A stretch of DNA of 60,126 nt from Octopus sinensis (Eukaryota): contig NW_021832573.1 of NCBI RefSeq assembly GCF_006345805.1, forward strand, positions 1 through 60,126. The letters are read 5' to 3'. Shown piece by piece: positions 6,455-48,889 of the stretch. The stretch's first letter is position 1. The number at the start of each line of letters is the position of its first letter. Both the position numbers and the translations under genes were made by a program. Below the pieces are notes generated by a model. It did not search any database, was not told where the DNA came from, and saw nothing but the letters and a program-made list of their open reading frames with translations.

Positions 6455-7107
6455 ACACATACATATATTCATACATGCATACATTCATACATACATGCAT
6501 ACATACATACATACATACATACATACATACATACATACATACATACATACATACATGTATACATAGGCACACACACATACACTGACCAACAAATGCGCAC
6601 AAACAAACAAAAAGGAATGCAGTGTAAATAACGGACAGAGTCAAGACTAAGGTTGCAAGACGCAACGGAAATTTTAGGAAAATAAAAATAAGGAATGAGT
6701 GGAAATTTTACCGGTGAGTGTGTTACATTATAAGGCACAAAAAGAAAATGACTCTCCCCAGACACAACAGAATATACTTCAACACACGAACTCACATAAA
6801 GAATCTTGCAGAACAAATCCATAAACGAAATATATATATATATATATACGCATGCACGAACACACACACACACATGTATAAGTATATATATATATTGTAT
6901 ACCATCATGAGCTTTTACATATCTTCTGATTAGTTGTCTTACCTCCCCTGTAGAGGTAAAAGCTCTATTCTTTCGCGATACCTTTAAAGTCAGGGACTTT
7001 TCAGCACCTCCTCATACAGGGTAAAGAGGAAACGACTTTGAATGAGACAAAAATTGAATGTTTGTCTCTCGAGTCGAGTTTCACCCTATTGTTTCCTACA
7101 AGCATGT

Positions 7108-7253: not shown

Positions 7254-7419
7254 ATATATCGCCGAATTGCAAAGATAATCTGGAAGTCGACTGAGGAAAG
7301 AAAACTCTGAATGACCCGTCCCTGTTTTCTTTGTATCATCTATCTGGATGTTTTGTTGTCCCTTTTTTGTATCACCTAACTGCCTGGATGTTTTGCGCGT
7401 TCTTTTTCCCATTTTGTAT

Positions 7420-7474
<55 letters not shown>

Positions 7475-7544
7475 GTATATATATATATATATGCTTTCAG
7501 ACCGTTTTTCGAAATCAGTGATAGTGGTTACTGAAAAACATTAA

Positions 7545-7795
7545 ATAGATATTCGCAAACAGGTCTCTCCTCATCGAAAACCGGTGATTACCGTGCGTTG
7601 ACAAGAGACAAAAATCTTGAAACTGCAGTCCGTGCGTATCACTTAGGTTTACGAGAGGGGATGACCTCCCTTTGCAAATATCATAAGAGCACAGAAAGTG
7701 TGCCTAAAGCCAGCTGGAGACGATGATCTCCTGGGGCTAAAAAGCTACAGTAACACCCACCCTTAGTGGTTAGCCATATTGAGATGGCTAGTATA
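7545..7795 (+). mobile_element. Structured HHR-bearing element, copy 1 (probable Penelope-like pLTR or retrozyme)
   Basis: cgtgcg-TTGACAA-GAGA-caaaaa-TCTT-GAAA-CTGCAG-TC-cgtgcg (7592-7636, core decayed) followed by hairpins shared with 9915-10090 and 24870-25125. Confidence 0.55.
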
Positions 7796-8289
7796 CTTTA
7801 CGTATATATATATTTATATATTAGACATTTATATCTAAATGAGGGCTCGTTCGTGAATCGATTAAAATATCGGCGTCGGAGACAAAATATAAACCTTGTA
7901 ACATTTAGTTTTGTCCAGTGTAAGTTTCGTGAAAACAATATATCCATAACTTGCTTCAAATGTTCGACGAAAAGAAAATAATCACGAGACAAACAGCTTA
8001 ATTCTATATAAAACAATATTCTTGACAACAGTATCGTAGCTTGATCGCAGACGAAGAAATGAAACAAAATAAACTTAGTACAATAATTGCAATTCAAACG
8101 TGGAGTAAGGCATTTTGTTAGCTTTGCAGACACACAATTTCAATATTTGTTTTTCTAAATTCATCTTCGTCATTAGATTACAATAATTGTGTGAGAAATC
8201 AATTCATTTTAATTAGATCAATGTTGACACACGTGTGTAAATTGCTTCGGTAAACCACTTGTGTCTCTATACTGTGTCTCTTCTTCTTC

Positions 8290-9626: not shown

Positions 9627-9914
9627 CATATATATATTTACATATATATCAATTTATATAAAGAAAGAGAGATACATATACAGATATATAGATATATACA
9701 GATGTATGTACGCATATACACCTATCTTCGTCTTTTGTTTTTGTGAATTCTCCCTATATGCATACATATATATATATATATATATAGTTTGAATTAAAAA
9801 AAAAAAGACGAAGGCTGCTGTGTAAACAGCAAACAGATGTATTAGTTTAACGCTCGGGAAGTGAGAAAGTCTTTTACATTTCGAGCCTATGCTGCTAAGT
9901 TAAAAAAAAAAAAC

Positions 9915-10090
9915 AGAAATTGCGATACGCAGATATTATTTTGAGCTGAGTTGGGGGTGCTAGATTCCCTCGTTCGAAAATATAAGGACACAGATTGTGT
10001 CGTATAGCCAGCTGAAGACGATGTCTCTTGGGGCTAAATTACAGCAACATGAGTCCTTAACCAGGACTGCCATGTTATGTTGGCAAACGA
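9915..10090 (+). mobile_element. Structured HHR-bearing element, copy 2 (5'-truncated inside the ribozyme)
   Basis: Starts at GAAA-TTGCGA-TA (3' half of HHR); downstream hairpins gacaca/tgtgtc, agcc/ggct, agtcct/aggact, tgcca/tggca. Confidence 0.5.
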
Positions 10091-10220
10091 TATTTCATAT
10101 GTGTTTTTGTTTCTCGTTTCAGAGTTCAGCTGAATCTCATTGAGTGACCTAAAGTTATAAACAAGAAAAAATATCAACATTGTTAGCCAGCTACACAATG
10201 CCCTACTCACTGACTTTTTT

Positions 10221-24763: not shown

Positions 24764-24869
24764 TTAAATCCTTAAAAATGTCTTAGCCCGAAGGCCGCGG
24801 CCATGCTGAGACATTTAGAAATTCAATATTTCTAATTTCCGTGATCAATAAATAAATTTTACTGATAAT

Positions 24870-25125
24870 ATGATATATTTGCAGAGAGGTTGCAGTCATC
24901 TCAGCGAGCGAGACTGGCTACCCTGAACTGACGACGAGCAATAGACTCAGAAACGTATGCCTTCAGGTGCTTAGTCCCAGCTGGCGGGGGTGATTGCATC
25001 CCCTTTGCAAATATAAGGACGCAGAAAATGTGTCAAAGCCGACAGGAGAAGTAGATGTTTCCTAGGGCTAAATGGCGGTGGTGTAATTCCCTTACGGGAC
25101 TGTTACACTGAGTTGACGGTATACG
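24870..25125 (+). mobile_element. Structured HHR-bearing element, copy 3
   Basis: cctgaa-CTGACGA-c-gag-caataga-ctc-a-GAAA-cgtatgcc-ttcagg (24922-24967) with a perfect 6-bp stem I, then the shared hairpin series; ends at (TA)n. Confidence 0.6.
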
Positions 25126-25127
25126 AC

Positions 25128-25188
<61 letters not shown>

Positions 25189-29796: not shown

Positions 29797-29856
<60 letters not shown>

Positions 29857-29858
<2 letters not shown>

Positions 29859-30610
29859 TGATCAAAATAAAAACATGATGCCAAGGATTCAGCGGTACAT
29901 ATGTTTCGGGCCTTTATTAGACAGATTTATAACAATGCATAATGTATGTCTGTGGCCTTCTTCAGCCGCGCACAACAGCTTCCACAAGGACATGTGTTAC
30001 ATCAAAAATTCTTGGTTGGGGATACAAATCCTCTCATTCGCGTACGACATAATGCGGCAACAGCATAGAATTGAAGCGTCCATCTCTTTCTTCTCTCAAT
30101 GTAAAATGAGGAAATTTGGATGTTGAAGTAATGTAAATAAATAAATACATATATAGACGTGAAGATGGAGGGGCGAGAATTCAGGACGAGGGATAAAAAA
30201 TGTATGTATAAAAAGTGTAAGTATAGAAAAATATAAAAATATAGAGTATAAAGATATAAAGGGATATAAGGAGATGTAAAGGGGGTATAAAGAATATAAA
30301 GAAATATAAAGAAATATAAATGAATGTAAAGGCATAAGGTTATAAAGTAAAAATAGAAATAGAAATAAAATTAAAAAGTAAAAAAATAAAAATAGGAATA
30401 AACATGATAAAAATGTAAAAAAATGTAAAAAAATATAAAGATAAGGGATGTATAGAGGTTACGGACCAAACATGGTGGTCAGGAGATTGATAAAATTTAG
30501 TTGTAGAAGTTTTGGGTGTCAATAAATCAACAGGGTCGTCTGGGGACCTAGTGTGTTGTAAATCAGAGCTGTTGAGCGTTTAATCTAGTTCTTTGAATTA
30601 ATTGGTCATC
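29857..30610 (-). mobile_element. Probable Penelope-like element 3' end with HHR (left arm of large inverted repeat plus extension)
   Basis: HHR at 29892-29969 on minus strand; ends in (TA)n; 29857-30361 is reverse-complementary to 31144-31648. Confidence 0.55.
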
Positions 30611-31143
30611 TTGTACATACATACCGTCATGGATACATACACCCATATACACGCGCACATATACGCGCGCATACACGGCTCCAAGCCTATAAGCATACAC
30701 ACGCACTCACGTGTAAACATGTACATAAACACACATACACCCACACGCACGCGCGTACATATACATACATACAACAGAATATCCGCATGTATACACGGAC
30801 ATTATACGTGTACACACCCATATATACATACGTGCGTCCATCCTTACATACACATACACATATGCCCACGCTTCCAGGTTTAGATATAAGATATTAAAGG
30901 ATGTATATAAGAACGTATGTAAAGAATCAAGCACTCACGTCTACACGTGCACGCACACACGGCTGTGTGTCCATATGTGCGTGCACATATACACTTACAT
31001 ACACACACAGAGACATACGCGCATATGGGTATAGCTATAAGATATTAAAAGATGTATACAAATAGGTGTAAACATATGAGTATGAGAAAACATGTAAAAA
31101 AACGTAAAGAAATACGGGGTATGCACATCCAGACGTAGATGTT

Positions 31144-31725
31144 TATTTCTATTTTTACTTTATAACCTTATGCCTTTACATTCATTTATATTTCTTTATA
31201 TTTCTTTATATTCTTTATACCCCCTTTACATCTCCTTATATCCCTTTATATCTTTATACTCTACATTTTTATATTATTCTATACTTACACTTTTTATACA
31301 TACATTTTTTATCCCTCGTCCTGAATTCTCGCCCCTCCATCTTCACGTCTATATATGTATTTATTTATTTACATTACTTCAACATCCAAATTTCCTCATT
31401 CTACATTGAGAGAAGAAAGAGATGGACGCTTCAATTCTATGCTGTTGCCGCATTATGTCGTACGCGAATGAGAGGATTTGCATCCCCAACCAAGATTTTT
31501 TGATGTAACACATGTCCTTGTGGAAGCTGTTGTGCGCGGCTGAAGAAGGCCACAGACATACATTATGCATTGTTATAAATCTGTCTAATAAAGGCCCGAA
31601 ACATATGTACCGCTGAATCCTTGGCATCATGTTTTTATTTTGATCAATTTACTCCACCACCTACACCACCAAACGGTATACACAGGTGCTTATAATTATC
31701 AAGTACTCACCCCGTATTTCTCTCT
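31144..31725 (+). mobile_element. Probable Penelope-like terminal repeat with HHR (right arm of large inverted repeat)
   Basis: gcgg-CTGAAGA-A-GGCC...GGCC-C-GAAA-CATATG-TA-ccgc at 31536-31613; ends at (TC)(TA)n. Confidence 0.6.
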
Positions 31726-32809: not shown

Positions 32810-35800
32810 TTACAGATTTATGCTTAAAATAGTGTCGTCTTTCATACTGACCATTTTTGCCACTTTTACCCACTTTTTATTAAAACATTCGTTCGACAAA
32901 GCCTTCCTCTCTATTCTCATCCTCCTTTTCAAATAGTACTTGAAAAAGTTGACGAGAGACTGACCAGAGAGGAAGGTGTTTGTTTGCAGTCCTTTCAAAC
33001 GCGTCCACCACACACATTCTTTCGCCATAGCCATCAGCGTAACGAAAACCGTTTTCCCTTCCCGTTTAAAGGAAGGTGGTGGAACGATATCCACGATAGA
33101 CTCGGCCGATAGGCGAGCCCGACCTACACGTGACAATAGCTGTTCGACGAAGGACCACAGCTCTGAAATATCTGGACACTGCACGAGTGCGTGCAGAACG
33201 GTTTTGTCGCTCTGACCGCATCTCGGGCAGGTCGGTCCGGTGATGGTTTTCGAACCGTGTCTGTAGCTCTTCTCTCGAACAGGTAGTGCGTCTCGATAGC
33301 ACTGCCAAGCCAGGAATTTCTGGAAGTTATCCATAGGCCCCTGCCCGAACGTCGTCCTGAACAGGCGGGTTAGGAATTCCTCGTCGACGCCCAGGTTTGC
33401 CCCGAGTGTGTCGTCGGACCTCCCCTCCACTAGTCCTCTATAGAACGCTTTAGTCGTTTGTAAGTTGCACAAGTTTGACCCCGGTCGGCATAGCTGCTGT
33501 AGAGCTTGGCGACACTCTCGGTGTCAATCGCCCAGTTTCGGTCTCTTTTTGATACACGTTTGCAGTTCGGTCAGTGAGACGAGCTGCGGGAAGTCGCGCC
33601 TCACAAACGGCGCCCACACCTGTTCACCGTCGTCGATGAAGTTCCAGAGATGTCGCAGTCTCAGCGCATGCCTGCGCATCATCAACCACGGCATGCCTAG
33701 TCCTCCATTCAACGGATGTTGACAGCAAATGGACTTCCTCACAATCGGAACGCCACCCTTCCACAGGAAGCGGAAGTGTATGCGTTCCAGTTTGGTGATG
33801 GTGGCGTCGGGACAAGGTACGACGGTCAGGCGTTAATCGATGACGGATGCGATGTACGCGTTCGCCACCTCCGCCCGGCCTTTTAGAGACAGCTTTCTCT
33901 CGGCCCATGTTTGGCTGAGAGCGACCACTCTACTCGTGATCTCGTCCCAGTTCTTATCCGGACTGAACCAGACCCCGAGCAATTTAACCGGTCCGTCCGT
34001 CCAGCGTCCCACTACTGAGCCGCAGTCGGACGGCATGGGCTTGCTTCTCCAGGTGCCGAGTAGCAAACCCACTGACTTTTCCGGGTTAATCTTTGCTCCC
34101 GTCACCGTTTCGTATTTTCTTAGTGTCTCGCCTATCATCTTGATGTGTTTGTCGCTCGACACTATGACGGTGACATCGTCCGCATATGCCGACACGCTCG
34201 TCCCGCAACCCAGTTCCCGTGGGATGCCCCTCAGTGTCGCCAGCTTCCGCAGTAGCGGCTCGAGAGTCAATACATACAGAAGCGCCGACAGGGGACACCC
34301 CTGACGGACCGAACGCGTGATGTCAAACGGTTTCGACAGGTGACCGTTCACCCGAATCACCGATCGGATGCCGTTATACAAGGCAGCGATCCAACCGCGG
34401 AAGACGGGACCGAAGCCAGCCGCCCTGAGGACGGCCGCCAAGTACCGATGGTGGACCCTATCGAAGGCTTTAGACTGATCCAAATTTATCAGCGCCCCAC
34501 CCATGCCAGGATCCTTAACTACCCTGTCCACAATGTAGCGCATCAGATGGAGGTTGTCATGTATGGTTCTGCCCGGCACGGCGCATGTTTGCGCCCTGTC
34601 GACCAGTTTACCAATGACAAGCGCCAACCTCTCGGCTATTACTTTGGCCAAAATTTTCAAATCTGCGTTGAGCAGAGTGATGGGCCTGAAATTATCTATA
34701 AAATTCCCCTTGTTTGGGTCTTTCTTCGGCAACGTCACTGCACCTCGGCTCACGAAACCGGGGATTCTCCCGTTTTGTTGCCAGTTGCAGTAGACTGATG
34801 CCAAGAGGTCGCCAAACAAGTCTGGCATTTGACAATACAGCTCGTAGGGTAAACCATCCAATCCAGGCGACTTATCCCTCGCGCAGCCAACCATCACATC
34901 CCACACGTCAGCGGCTGTGATGGGTCTTTCACAACACTCCGCCTTCTCTTGCCGAGAGCCGCGGCAGGTCGGTCAGGTAGGCACTGAAATCCATCCCGGG
35001 TTCCGACCCACCACTCGCACCAAACAGTCGAGCAAAGTGCTGTTGAAAGGCCTCACACATCCTTTCGGATCTATTAGAGACCGAATGGTGGCTCTGTTGC
35101 CACGCTGCGCCTCCGCTACCCCCGGGCCTCTCACGCGCAGCTTCGATCCTTCGTTCCTTAAGGCACGCATTTTAGCTCTGACGACGCACCTTCGTGCTTG
35201 GCGTTGAGGTGTTGGTCGAGGGCCATCCTCGCAGCCAGCACGTTGGTTGCGCTGCCAGTGGTAAGTGCCCTTCTAGTTCTTAACCAAGTCTCCCTCTACT
35301 CTATTTCGTTCTATCGCTAATTCCTTGCTAAACCTAATTGATTCCGATTTTATTGCCATTTTCAGGGCGTACCACCAGCGGTTGTTAACGACGGCTCTCG
35401 TCAGCGCCCTCTTAATTAACTCGCTAATCCGGTTCCTGTAAACCTGTCGCGCTAACAGCGACGTGTTCAGTTTCCAGTAACCGGGACCCTGCCTATGTGT
35501 TTTATCTAAGTCGAGCGTACACGTAACAAATTTGTGATCTGTGTAGCTGACTATTTTAAATTGTGGACATCCTACACTATCCCTATCCGCTGTCCTGCAT
35601 AGAATTCTATCTAGATAAGATCTCGACGATCCGACGCGGTTTGTCCAAGTCCACGTTGGCACGTTCGGATGGTCGAATCGGAACCTGTCAGACAAATGGA
35701 AACGTCTGAGCAGGTCTTTGAGGCTCTTACATCCCCTTCTATTCCTATCCCTTCCCACATACTAGATGCGTGTCCAAGGTAGCGTTCCAATCCCCTACTA

Positions 35801-36220
35801 ACAGTAAAGTTCTAGACGTACCCAGGAAACCTCTAGACGTCTGAAGAAATCCGCCCGACCCGTTAAGGACGGTGCATAAACTGCCATCAGACGGAATGCA
35901 CACCCATTTCTGCCATCCACGTCCAAGACAACCAGCCTACCCTCCGGGTCTAGGAATATTGCTCTTACTTTTACATTTAGACTCTTTCGAAAAAGCACCG
36001 CGGTACCTCCACCACCCATGTTCGGCAGACAGGGAGAAAAATAAATGTCAAATTGATTGCCAAACATGGACTCGAGGGCCCGCGGCTTACTGAGTCTGGT
36101 TTCACTGATAGCTACTATATCCACATTCAGTGACTTGATGTCGTTTAGAAGGTAACCTTGCTTGCAAGCCGACGCCAAGCCACGCGCATTCACACAACCT
36201 AATTTAAGCATACTTGACAT
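32810..36220 (-). pseudogene. ORF2: apurinic-like endonuclease + reverse transcriptase + C-terminal Cys/His domain, several frameshifts and stops
   Basis: VNARGL, VAISET, VYAP, GDWN, SYLDRIL, YTDH, GPGYWKLNTSLL; KSPGLDG, NFRPITLLNADLKILAK, LDQSKAFDRV, VRQGCPLS, AYADD; CPRC...LHALVQC. Confidence 0.93.
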
Positions 36221-36277
36221 TTACGAAAATTGTGTTCTACACACTACATTAGAAGAGACAAGAGGCAAGAGGGGAGG

Positions 36278-38065
36278 TCACTTACTCATTTTAAAAGTTT
36301 CATTTTTTTCTTCTTCTTTTGTATTGTTTTTGATGAGGTGTTTGTATAGTTTTTTCGACAGGTATCGTTGAAACCCGCCTACCGCATTCGGAAATATTGT
36401 TTTCAGTATGTGGTGTTGTGCTTGTGTTATGTGTAAAATTCTGATGTGTTTCGGTGGTGTGGTGTGCGGATGATTGTTTGTCTTAAATTCATCTTCACAG
36501 ATGACCGTGCTGGATGTGATGTAGTCCATTAATTCTTTATTGTCTGTGTCTATTGCAGTTAGTTGTGTGTGTGGTTTTACGGGTTCGTTGCTTTTTTGAT
36601 TGTCTAGGGGGATGTTGTCCGGAGTTAGATATCTCCCTGCTTTACTTCCTTGTTTGGTGGATTTTTTGGATCTTTTTCTTTTACCCCCTGTGGCTTTTTG
36701 CCATTCCGTCGAACTTTCGTCGTCCGACGTATCAGTATGGGGTAGAGGCAAAGCATTTGCATTACTATGTATGCTTGTATAAATTGTTGATGTTTTGTGC
36801 GGTGTTTGTGTTGTTGTGGTGTTAGGGGTAGAATTTGTCTTCTCGTCACTGTTTTCTGTCTTTTTAATTGTCGTCCTCGGTGTGGGTGTTGGTCTATTTT
36901 TTGTTGATTCAACATGTTGAATTGGTTGTGACGTCAACGGTGATTGTGTTGGTACTGTTTCTTTTCTTGGTGATGTTGTTGGGGTTTGTTTGCTGGTTTG
37001 TTGTTTTTCTTGGCATTGTTCCATAATTGAGTGTGTTGGTGTTGGTGTTGGTGTTGGCAACAAGGGTTTTTTATTTGTTTTCTGATTTGTTCTTTCTTGT
37101 TTTTTCTGTACCAGAGCGCACTTGGCAATCAAATGTTCGGGGCTGCCACATTTGTAGCATCTAGGCTTTTTGCCTTCTGCTACAACATATAGGCATTGCC
37201 CATTTTCCAAGTGGATCTTATCCGGTAGGCTCTCGATAGAGGCCCCCTCAATCTGTATGGTCACCACTACTGTCTTCCCACCCCAAATGTCGCCAAGGTA
37301 CACGGCGGTTTCCAAAATGTTGATTTTTTTAAATGGAACAGATTGCCCCTGTTATCCATTTGTTAGGAATCTCGGGAGGTACATTTTTTAGTAATAGTGA
37401 TTCGACTCACTCTCTGGTTTTTATGTATGGGACCATGATGATTTCATCATTTCCCAGAGACTCAGTAGAGTGATTTTGCCACTTCCTGGTTAGGGAAGCG
37501 GACCACTACTGTGTTAAACTGGGGACCCCCGTTTATATATTCTTTTCTTTCATTATGTTTTTTAAGCATTTTTCTACATCCGTTTTTGTAATCTGTTCAT
37601 TTGGTTTTTTGTTTTTTCTAATAATTTTATATATTTGTCTTATTTTCATTTCTTTTCTTGCTTTATATGTGTTGAGGTTTATGTAGCACTAAATCTTGCC
37701 CACTGGTTGTAAAGAGAGATCTTTGTTTCTAAAGTTCTTCGTTCGTGAATGTAAAATCTCCTTTTCTTCTGACCAGAGGTGTCAGCGAAATTTGTTGGTG
37801 TGTAATTCTGTTATATTAACATCTTCACTATTAGATAGTTCATTTTTATTGTTGTTCTTGTTGCTGTTGTTTTTGTCAATAGTTTTCGTGTGAGTTTTAT
37901 TTTTATCACTTATGTTGGTCCTGGTGGTGTGGTGGTGGTGGTGGTGGAGTGGTGGTGGTAGCAGTAGTAGTCTCGTTGTTGCTGTTGTTAATGGTGGTGG
38001 TGGTGGTGGTGACAGGGCTGTTACCGCACGTGGTTGCAGCGTTCATTCGACCGTTATTCATGTTG
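36278..38065 (-). pseudogene. ORF1, gag-like with CCHC zinc knuckle and low-complexity T/P/K region; 5' part frameshifted
   Basis: ORF 36278-37315 contains CYKCGSPEHLIAKC (CX2CX4HX4C); upstream extent inferred from base composition. Confidence 0.75.
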
Positions 38066-38447: not shown

Positions 38448-40673
38448 GAGTTTCTTTATTGGCCACACAGGGCTGCACACAGATGGGACAAATTACAAGG
38501 TAGAGCTTTTCTTTTGGGGGATGAAAAAAACAAAAAACAAAAAACAAAAGAAACAAAAAAAATTTGGCGTAGGTTTTCGATCAAAAGGGATCGTAAAAGG
38601 GAAAAAAGAAACAAAAGAAAAGAAAAAGGAAAAAAGGTGAAGAGGGAAAAAAGCGATCAATAGGGATCGTGTATCACAGTGTCATGATGTACGGTGTAAG
38701 GGGAGAAGCAGATAAGGTTTATTCTTGGGAAGAAAAGCCTACGAAAAAGACCACGGTAACCTCGGTCAATATTGTTATATGTTACCACATTTGTTTGCAA
38801 GTGGGTAACCCTCTGTTTTCAATTTCTGGGTTCATAGGATTATGCTCAAGGTGGCTTCGTCATTTTTTTAAAACATTCACTAGACAAAACTTGCCTCTCT
38901 ACTCTCACTTTCCTTTTCAAGTGGTACTTGAAGAAGTTGATGAGAGATTGACCAGAGAGGAAAGTGTTTGTCTCCAATCTTTTCAGACGCGTCCACCAGA
39001 TACATTCTTTCGCCATAGCCACAAGGATGATGAAAATAGCTCTTCCTTCCCGTTTGAAGGAAGGAGGCGTGACAATATTGACGATAGACTCAGCTGATAA
39101 ACCGACATCGTCCCACACGTGACAGCAGTTGTTCTACATAAGCCCACAAGTCGGAAATTGTTGGACACTGCACGAGTGCGTGCAGAACGGTTTCGTCGCT
39201 CTGACCGCAGGTCGACCCCGCGTTTCTCGAGCCGTGTCTGTAGAGCTTATCCCGAACGGGTTGCGCTTCTCGGTAGCACTGCCAGGCCAGGGATCTCTGG
39301 AAGTTGTCCATGGGCCCTGGCCCGAAAGTCGTCCCGAACAGGCGGGTCAGGTATTCCTCGTCGATGTCCAGGTTCGCCCCGAGCTCGTCGTCGTACCTCC
39401 CCTCCACTAATCCCCTATAGAATGCTTTGGTTTTGATAGAGTCACTCAAGTTCGACCTAGGACGGCAGAGTTGCTTGAGAGCAACGCGACACTCGCGGTG
39501 CCATTCGCTCTTCCTCGGCCTCTTTTTGATCCACGACTGCAGTTCGGTCATGGAGACGAGCTGCGGGAAAGCGTGTCCCACAAACGGTGACCACACCTGT
39601 TCACCGTTGTCTACGAAGAGCCTGAGATGTCGCAGTCTCAGCGCGTGTCTGCGCATCATCAACCACGGCATGCCCAGTCCTCCTTTTAACGGGTGTTGAC
39701 AGCAAATGGATCGCCTGACCATCGGGCGCATCCTTTCCACAAGAAGCGAAAGAGAATGCGTTCTAGTTTAGTGATGGTAGGGTCGGGACAAGGCGACGGT
39801 CTGACGGTAGTAGATGACGGACGCGATGTACGTGTTCGCCACCTTAGCCCGACCTTTTAGGGACAGTTTCCTCTCGGCCCATTGCTGAGCGAGAGTGATC
39901 ACCCTACTCGTTATCTCGTTCCAGTTCTTCTCCACTTGGAGGTCCGGACCGAACCAGACCCCGAGCAACTCGACCGGACCGTCGGTCCAGCGTCCCACAT
40001 CGGAGGCGCTGGTGGACGGCATGGGCTTGCTTCTCCAGGTGCCTAGTCGCAAGCCCACTGACTTTTCCCGGTTGATTTTCGCTCCTGTCACCGCTTCGTA
40101 GTTTTTCAGTGTCTCGCCGACCTGCTCGATGTGCTCGTGGCTAGACACTATGACGGTGACGTCGTCCGCGTATGCAGACACGCTCGTCCCGCATCCCAGT
40201 TCTCGCGGGATGCCCCTCAGAGTCGCCAGCTTCCGCAATAGTGGCTCGAGAGTCAATACGTGTAGAAGCGACGAGAGGGGACATCCCTGACGGACCGAAC
40301 GTGCGATGACGAAAGTTCTCGATAGATGTCCATTTACGCGAATTACCGAACGGATCGCTCTGTACAAAGCGGCTATCCAGCCGCGGAAGACGGGACCGAA
40401 GCCAGCCGCTCTGAGGACAGCCCCCAAGTATCGATGGTCTACTCTATCGAAAGCTTTCGATTGATCCAAATTGATCAGTGCCCCACTCATGCCAGGTTCG
40501 TTAACTACTCTGTCTATGATGTAGCGCATCAGATGGAGGTTGTCATGGATGCTCCGGCCCGGCACGGCGCACGTTTGCGCCTTGTCGACCAGTTTCTCGA
40601 TGACAAGCGCCAACCTCTTGGCTAACACCTTGGCCAAAATTTTCAAGTCTGCATTAAGCAGAGTGATGGGCCT
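38448..40673 (-). mobile_element. 5'-truncated Tx1/L1-type LINE, second subfamily (RT to 3'UTR), within (GATA)n
   Basis: RPITLLNADLKILAK...LDQSKAFDRV...RQGCPLS...AYADD; frameshifts; ~33-bp deletion near 38863 relative to the 1978-2587 copy; followed by (GATA)/(GACA)n 40674-40755. Confidence 0.92.
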
Positions 40674-40680
40674 AGATAGG

Positions 40681-40728
<48 letters not shown>

Positions 40729-40955
40729 CAGACAGATAGACAGACAGACAGACAGCTTGGTCTATAGGGTCGTAAATTCATAATTATGTGTGTACTTTTT
40801 CTGTGAATCTTGTGATGTCTTGAATATGTGCAATGCACATATATCCATGTAGTAAAGGAATCCATCATCTGGTTAATGAGGTTTGTGCCTTTTATGCATA
40901 ATGTTCTTATGACGCATATAATCGATGTCTAGACAAAAAGTCATCTAGGTTCGTT

Positions 40956-48412: not shown

Positions 48413-48889
48413 TGTGTGCGTGTGTGTGTGTGTGTGCGTGTGTGTGTGTGTATTTATGTTTATGTGTATATGTGTGTGGGGGAAATAGAAGTTGAAAATG
48501 CACTGGGAATAGTTAAATTATTTTTTATTAATATATTTGAAGCTTTAACTGGTTTCACAGTTTACACTGATTTTCAAAAAGTTCGAACAGAAAGACGTGG
48601 CTTATGTCGCAGCAGTCTTGCTTCTGACTAGTGTTTGAAGACTGCCCTGATTTTATGGGGAGTTCATGGCTCAAATTAGTATGTTTGGGACAGGATTTGA
48701 TTAGTAGAGGATAGTCACATGACTGGTCTTAGAACGCTACGTCCGTGTGTTTGTACCAAGTGACAATGTTTGACATCGTAAGTTAAGGCTGACACGCTTG
48801 ACTGAACAAGTCCAAACAATCAATGCTCTTATTGTTTACTGCCAAGTGTTTGTTGAGGATGAATACATTAGTAAGTTCGATATTTTGTG

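Follow-up and report, generated by a model that had tools for sequence, protein, structure and literature searches.

Animal non-LTR retrozymes are the closest described systems to the repeats reported here: non-coding units of about 350 nt with GC under 45%, which occur in tandem, co-occur with Penelope-like elements (PLEs) and carry a type I hammerhead ribozyme with a short palindromic stem III (PMC7229834). Mussel units measure 350-390 nt, and circularisation of the monomers was shown for coral, mussel and axolotl retrozymes (PMC7229834). A recent preprint, which samples 31 vertebrates, three insects and one coral and no mollusc, argued from co-occurrence and pseudo-LTR (pLTR) homology that animal retrozymes derive from PLEs (bioRxiv 10.64898/2026.07.22.740005). 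The hallmarks of PLE insertions are partial tandems, 5' inversions, an optional tail of 30-40 bp and a bias towards (TA)n (PMC8557442). This tail lies between two internal starts of reverse transcription, and RNA 3' of them is needed; in PAc, a Poseidon PLE of the green anole, the RNA segment 3' of the first start is required for activity (PMC11167929).

Three loci in the window, which is the whole stretch of 60,126 nt of Octopus sinensis DNA analysed here, carry copies of non-coding, hammerhead-bearing repeats that are very probably PLE-mobilised retrozymes (Table 1). Their families fall within the bounds of a retrozyme monomer (about 170-400 nt, GC under 45%), with eight natural units of 343-363 nt and 38-44% GC. 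The available text of the animal survey reports species-specific sequences with single predicted folds, and no cross-family architecture or analysis of tails and 3' ends is noted there (PMC7229834); the octopus families differ from those retrozymes in that most copies are single or partial units. They resemble the retrozymes of the preprint in overall identity, proposed partner class and dispersal of monomers through the genome, and in place of the pLTR homology used there, which they lack with the PLEs examined, they offer an insertion signature (bioRxiv 10.64898/2026.07.22.740005). With PAc they appear to share two internal starts of reverse transcription around a tail and AT-rich targets, whereas PAc is autonomous, with an ORF overlapping the hammerhead, a tail of 30-40 bp and starts within one AC-rich stem-loop, and the octopus families have no ORF, a 47-64-nt tail and a multi-helix domain around the sites (PMC11167929). 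The pLTR hammerheads of EN+ PLEs have the same type I topology, palindromic stem III and U3-A8 variant, and those elements also insert as partial tandems and inversions with a (TA)n bias (PMC4209133, PMC8557442); the octopus ribozymes differ from them in a canonical stem I of about 6 bp and stem II of 4 bp, in a conserved loop 2 and bulge, and in flanking no ORF.

A preliminary description of this DNA had proposed three divergent copies of one element (7545-7795, 9915-10090 and 24870-25125), each with a hammerhead enclosed by a long-range stem and followed by hairpins in constant order. All of the stem sequences that it listed are present at these loci. A covariance model of hairpins H1-H4 built from eight family-2 sequences, and from that family alone, recovers copy 1 (54 bits, E 1.1e-8) and copy 3 (38 bits, E 1.6e-5) without any additional match in the window at E<=0.05, and the three loci are therefore homologous. 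They are members of three separate families, each with relatives 91-98% identical elsewhere, and not divergent copies of one repeat; the elements also extend beyond the spans first given, a full unit being about 355 nt long. The hammerhead of copy 1 passes the descriptor with a U3-A8 core, a known natural variant (PMC4209133). Copy 3 is predicted to be inactive because a C replaces the conserved U at core position 16.1, within the triplet before the cleavage site. Copy 2 begins at about 9914, inside the ribozyme, and keeps GAAA, stem III and the cleavage site; missing are stem II, the CUGAUGA core and the long stem's 5' strand, all of which family F2 otherwise has. Against dinucleotide shuffles, the folds of copies 1 and 3 are strongly stable (z -5.68 and -4.98, each with 0/200 shuffles as stable) and that of copy 2 is weaker (z -2.19).

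Table 1. Features of the three retrozyme copies in the window
Feature	Position	Strand	Basis
Copy 1 (family F1), 5'-truncated, stops at 3' end class A, (TA)n flanks	7492-7800	+	boundaries, relatives
Copy 1 hairpin H0, missed in the preliminary description	7515-7534	+	
Copy 1 long rod, hammerhead stem I extended	7548-7682	+	predicted fold
Copy 1 type I hammerhead, predicted cleavage after 7630, stem III palindromic, core (U3-A8 variant) from 7598	7592-7636	+	descriptor match
Copy 1 hairpins H1 to H4	7689-7791 (H1 7689-7703, H2 7708-7738, H3 7757-7769, H4 7770-7791)	+	
Copy 1, 5' strand of long-range stem P5	7747-7753	+	
Copy 2 (family F2), truncated within the ribozyme	9914-10092	+	
Copy 2 hairpins H1 to H4	H1 9987-10001, H2 10006-10035, H3 10052-10068, H4 10068-10085	+	
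Copy 3 (family F3), from H6/H7 region to 3' end class A, then (TA)n	24806-25130	+	
Copy 3 hairpins H7 and H0	24815-24866 (H7 24815-24835, H0 24844-24866)	+	
Copy 3 long rod	24874-25015	+	predicted fold
Copy 3 type I hammerhead, core from 24928, cleavage site after 24961, position 16.1 mutated	24922-24967	+	
Copy 3 hairpins H1 to H4	25018-25120 (H1 25018-25034, H2 25037-25069, H3 25088-25099, H4 25099-25120)	+	
Copy 3, 5' strand of P5	25075-25083	+	

The window copies represent three of at least six families (F1-F6). Each yielded more than 2,000 candidates at a first look at the 2.72-Gb, microsatellite-rich host genome, the identities of full-length relatives being taken from the 40 scored per search. 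Flanking sequence and a systematic 1-Mb sample supplied the further main families F4, F5 and F6 (1,721, 292 and 2,042 candidates) and several subfamilies. With a second covariance model, 12 units were found in 10 of 100 sampled 10-kb stretches, which extrapolates from this 1-Mb sample to about 33,000 units genome-wide (Poisson range 17,000-57,000). Identity between main families is 56-65%, compared with 52% for shuffled sequence, and the best copies of F6, a young family, are 95-99% identical. Units abut directly and show no coding capacity. Arrays with two complete ribozyme motifs exist (e.g., L214, L207), and no long multimers were seen among the loci inspected; neighbouring units did not differ in identity from units at other loci. 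At L238 (~1200-1460, + strand), the family-5 hammerhead has its 5' half repeated locally in tandem about six times ahead of a single unit. Contigs of four sequencing runs, which are not on record as RNA, cover a family-6 array in pieces from which strand, level, ends and circularity cannot be read, and a degenerate H2 pattern had no match in metagenome or viral contigs, collections that are poor in animal DNA.

All six families carry the type I hammerhead with its palindromic stem III, and the core is fully canonical in 69 of the 116 copies that span it (F3 23/33, F1 19/26, F2 9/22, F6 10/11, F4 7/15, F5 1/9). These are canonical metazoan ribozymes, unlike the minimal PLE form to which the preliminary description had referred, and their conserved loop 2 and stem I bulge are what we take to be the tertiary contacts of such ribozymes. 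Rfam at gathering threshold gave no match in seven loci and only chance-level matches at relaxed thresholds, and none fell at the three loci among the 150 of 157 window matches listed; the hammerhead call therefore rests on the descriptor. Hammerheads of this kind are thought to cut as dimers within tandem repeats (PMC4209133, PMC6765202), and eight of nine predicted retrozyme dimers of Xenopus were inactive in vitro (bioRxiv 10.64898/2026.07.22.740005). If linear, cleaved RNAs were the templates, 5' ends would pile up at the predicted cleavage site; only 7 of 83 lie near it (4.9 expected, P=0.22), so that cleaved linear templates are unsupported overall, and the running of 5' ends through the site fits circular or uncleaved multimeric templates. 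Family 6 alone has 5 of 29 truncated units starting 3-11 nt past the predicted site, a pattern not found in F1, F3 and F4.

The families converge on one predicted fold. When the eight natural units were folded independently as circles, seven were more stable than 40/40 shuffles (z -3.3 to -10.2; the eighth, z -1.6), and about nine helices recurred in the order H0, a long rod with the ribozyme at its tip, H1, H2, P5, H3, H4, H6 and H7, with some missing in single aged copies. P5 is predicted to be a long-range stem closing a junction that holds stacked H3 and H4. It escaped the preliminary description because its 3' strand, like H6 and H7, lies past the 3' ends of all three window copies.

Our modelling indicates that this fold of about nine helices covaries across families that are about 60% identical. 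On an alignment made from sequence only (11 copies, six families), RNAalifold predicted 37 pairs in H0, the inner rod, stems I and II, H2, H4 and H6, of which 26 show double-sided changes; 88% of paired cells were occupied by pairs, compared with 31-47% when partners were slid. The covariation score on the same alignment was 0.51 compared with 0.25 in shuffles (0/500), a comparison to be read with the caveat that related sequences can beat shuffles without structure and that the sample of six families is small and its members related. Further pair types, by count, gave no significant signal there (48/500), and RNAalifold missed H1, H3, P5 and the outer rod, since MAFFT misregisters them. When 14 copies were aligned by fitting to the model, a procedure that favours the structure, 16 of 25 pairs had both-side changes (H1 5/5, H2 5/10, H3 4/5, H4 2/5). 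In a strand-swap test across all copies of the six families, F5 being represented by one usable copy in the ribozyme-anchored windows, each family's own partner strands ranked first of 720 assignments for P5 (mean own/other -9.7/-6.6 kcal/mol), stem I (-4.4/-1.2) and two rod segments (-22.2/-13.8 and -8.7/-4.6). Four control pairings ranked 24, 52, 8 and 462 of 720, and their high ranks imply that composition inflates the ranks and explains part of the effect. The earlier proposal of a conserved structured RNA module in a retrozyme or Penelope setting is thereby upheld, by covariation across six families, by the existence of tandem monomers and by the lack of an Rfam match.

The insertions themselves carry the signature of Penelope-type mobilisation. 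Partial tandems or 5' inversions were found in 50 of 105 insertions (upstream unit direct in 18, inverted in 28, both in 4, none in 55; direct partial or full tandems in 22/105). Among 170 mapped 3' ends, we excluded 18 that either continued into the following unit or reached the limit of the reference. Of the other 152, 146 cluster in two windows whose offsets are homologous across the six families; these windows were drawn after the data had been seen and from searches that under-sample copies ending before the first. Site A (85/152) lies 55-78 nt after the H2 3' strand, in the linker just past H4, and all three window copies stop at or near it; site B (61/152, one of them a reference's own end) lies 113-135 nt after the same strand, at the foot of H7; six ends fall between the two. 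The median tails between A and B are 47-64 nt. Most flanks consist of (TA)n or AT-rich DNA, a tendency that is weakest in F2. This combination of two ends, a tail and 5' inversion points to PLE enzymes. P5 has been kept even though the 85 ends at site A omit its partner strand, which argues that selection acts on templates that contain the tail.

Potential partners are present in the genome as intact frames of 775-883 aa with RT and GIY-YIG similarity and TA-flanked ends; in two of them GIY-YIG is above the Pfam cut-off and RVT_1 just below it. A young family (L246-L256) includes several intact, near-identical 781-aa RT+GIY-YIG frames (e.g., L248:1720-4066, + strand), has a 3' region of about 0.9 kb and (TA)n targets, and would be a good candidate for biochemistry. 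A second, older-looking group is also resident. Two ends are a feature of the resident PLEs as well, with a spacing of about 33 nt in the young 781-aa group and of about 60-70 nt in the older-looking one; the wider spacing matches the retrozyme tail better, a weak hint, and the youth of F6 implies a recently active partner enzyme and so favours a recently active group. The module was not found as a PLE's own end in any of 54 scanned loci, some of which overlap and which include 14 of 20 long loci; four strong matches were separate insertions, the PLE ends seen were AT-rich and unlike the module, and no pLTR sequence or structure was shared with the families in these 54 loci. This gives no support to a protein-recognition element common to PLEs and families, and it counts against the handle proposed below.

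Several other elements lie in the window. The 3' end of a member of the second PLE group, with a pLTR, a tail of about 63 nt and a partly deleted hammerhead core, occupies 6525-6841 (+) as a separate insertion 650 nt upstream of copy 1, and that of another PLE family (L095 type) lies at 48483-48876 (-), with a U3-A8 hammerhead-like core at 48547-48577. A different repeat ending in (TA)n, with a hammerhead-like core and altered GAAA, is found at ~7260-7420 (+) and also upstream in L003 and L004, and the TA tract of this type of repeat is an insertion target for retrozyme copies. Pieces of disrupted LINE coding sequence that show RT and endonuclease motifs (32810-37351 and 39090-40928, both -), by eye presumably of L1/Tx1 type, and a 513-nt inverted repeat (29854-30366 / 31139-31651, 98% complementary, 772 nt apart) were also noted.

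We propose that these are hammerhead repeats of about 355 nt that insert in Penelope fashion, and that their shared fold serves as a handle for a PLE RT/endonuclease that starts at two internal sites, a reading to which we assign a probability of roughly 60%. It draws together the partial tandems and inversions, the two 3' ends, unit size, hammerhead, convergent folds, covariation and strand specificity, the intact RT+GIY-YIG PLEs in the genome, and the position of the best-conserved bases, in the H2 internal loop and H4 loop, beside site A. The preliminary description had suggested an RT recognition signal, to which the two conserved ends lend indirect support. The tail of 47-64 nt, compared with 30-40 bp given for PLEs in general (PMC8557442), counts against our reading. 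Tandem copies would be transcribed, and paired hammerheads with palindromic stem III would cut out monomers, which may circularise by ligation. A PLE protein encoded elsewhere would nick AT-rich DNA and prime reverse transcription at site A, immediately 3' of H4, or at site B, where H7 has its foot. Since P5 needs its partner strand in the tail, a working template would have to hold the tail even for cDNA starting at A, which is what internal initiation on circular or multimeric RNA would provide. Most new copies would be truncated and unable to serve as sources.

The main rival to the handle accepts PLE mobilisation and assigns the fold to the RNA's own life, in monomer folding, control of cleavage, host ligation and circle stability, with start sites set by short local sequence or AT microhomology; we regard it as a serious though distinctly less probable account. 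The rod directly extends hammerhead stem I and is predicted to keep the cut ends together, and a high degree of self-pairing is predicted for the circles of known retrozymes (PMC7229834). Both end classes finish in AT-rich letters that match the TA flank, and the autonomous PLEs of this genome possess two ends yet lack the fold. Stability alone, however, would not fix helix order, spacing and the H2 and H4 loop bases at about 60% identity, nor would it hold both ends at constant structural positions.

Conserved bases could also reflect an internal promoter that works at the level of DNA, in which case the hairpins would be secondary features of the RNA. A gene-less element needs a promoter of its own, and none was located here; short conserved motifs do recur at the foot of H0 and in the 3' strand of the rod, and newt satellite transcripts are apparently made by RNA polymerase II (PMC6765202). 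The double-sided pair changes and long-range strand specificity point instead to pairing in RNA, and a tRNA-like head was absent in 9/9 loci, so that we judge this explanation improbable. Slightly more improbable still is that the families are solo pLTRs of autonomous PLEs outside those found. The PLE candidates were the best 150 of 5029 and the best 150 of 8395, a small share of PLE copies, and retrozymes and pLTRs are homologous in Xenopus (bioRxiv 10.64898/2026.07.22.740005). Upstream of a unit, however, sits the tail of the previous one with no intervening ORF, in rows of up to about three units. The RT/GIY-YIG reading frame that the preliminary description had suggested looking for next to the module is absent in the window and upstream in 125 family loci; PLE coding fragments occur in just two of these loci, in each case downstream. 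It is barely credible that the covariation is a by-product of inverted repeats left by template switching, with no selection on RNA structure: PLE-type copying often yields inversions and the minus strands of the window copies fold nearly as well as the plus strands, but the helices contain G-U pairs and bulges, have conserved loops, bridge distances of 55-130 nt and take in the ribozyme's own stems, which show the same pattern. With strand assigned from the ribozyme core, the plus strand was lower in energy in 8/8 full units and results were mixed in window copies.

Other classes were considered and set aside: a tRNA-derived SINE (ARAGORN found 0 genes in the nine loci, a weak test for decayed heads, and the two 3' ends and circularly permuted tandems speak against it), a SECIS element (no selenoprotein ORF), an LTR-retrozyme (no LTR-flanked interior) and an autonomous EN+ PLE (the families are without an RT + GIY-YIG ORF).

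The class of element is thus a known one; within the literature searched, the shared covarying fold and the two conserved 3' ends with a tail are new. We found no account there of cephalopod retrozyme families, of a cross-family fold or of a two-end retrozyme tail; Repbase and Dfam, which lay outside the search, may list the families. Two questions meet in these repeats, namely which enzyme moves animal retrozymes and which features of an RNA make PLE reverse transcriptases start inside their template. Here the PLE tail signature appears on a gene-less unit of 355 nt, and covariation across six families maps the helices and loop bases that have been kept, in a genome with tens of thousands of hammerhead motifs where Rfam reports none at these loci. 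The families are ready substrates and natural compensatory mutants for the existing in vitro PLE assay. More tentatively, the H1-H2-P5-H3-H4-H6-H7 domain could have evolved as a dedicated RNA aptamer of a telomerase-related PLE RT, carried on circular RNA; as a structured element it would define the template boundary and the start site, with no sequence relationship to the ends of the host PLE itself. If so, a cis-element through which a small circular RNA recruits a PLE enzyme would be defined for the first time, and it would offer a portable means of tagging RNA cargo that is to be written into AT-rich DNA.
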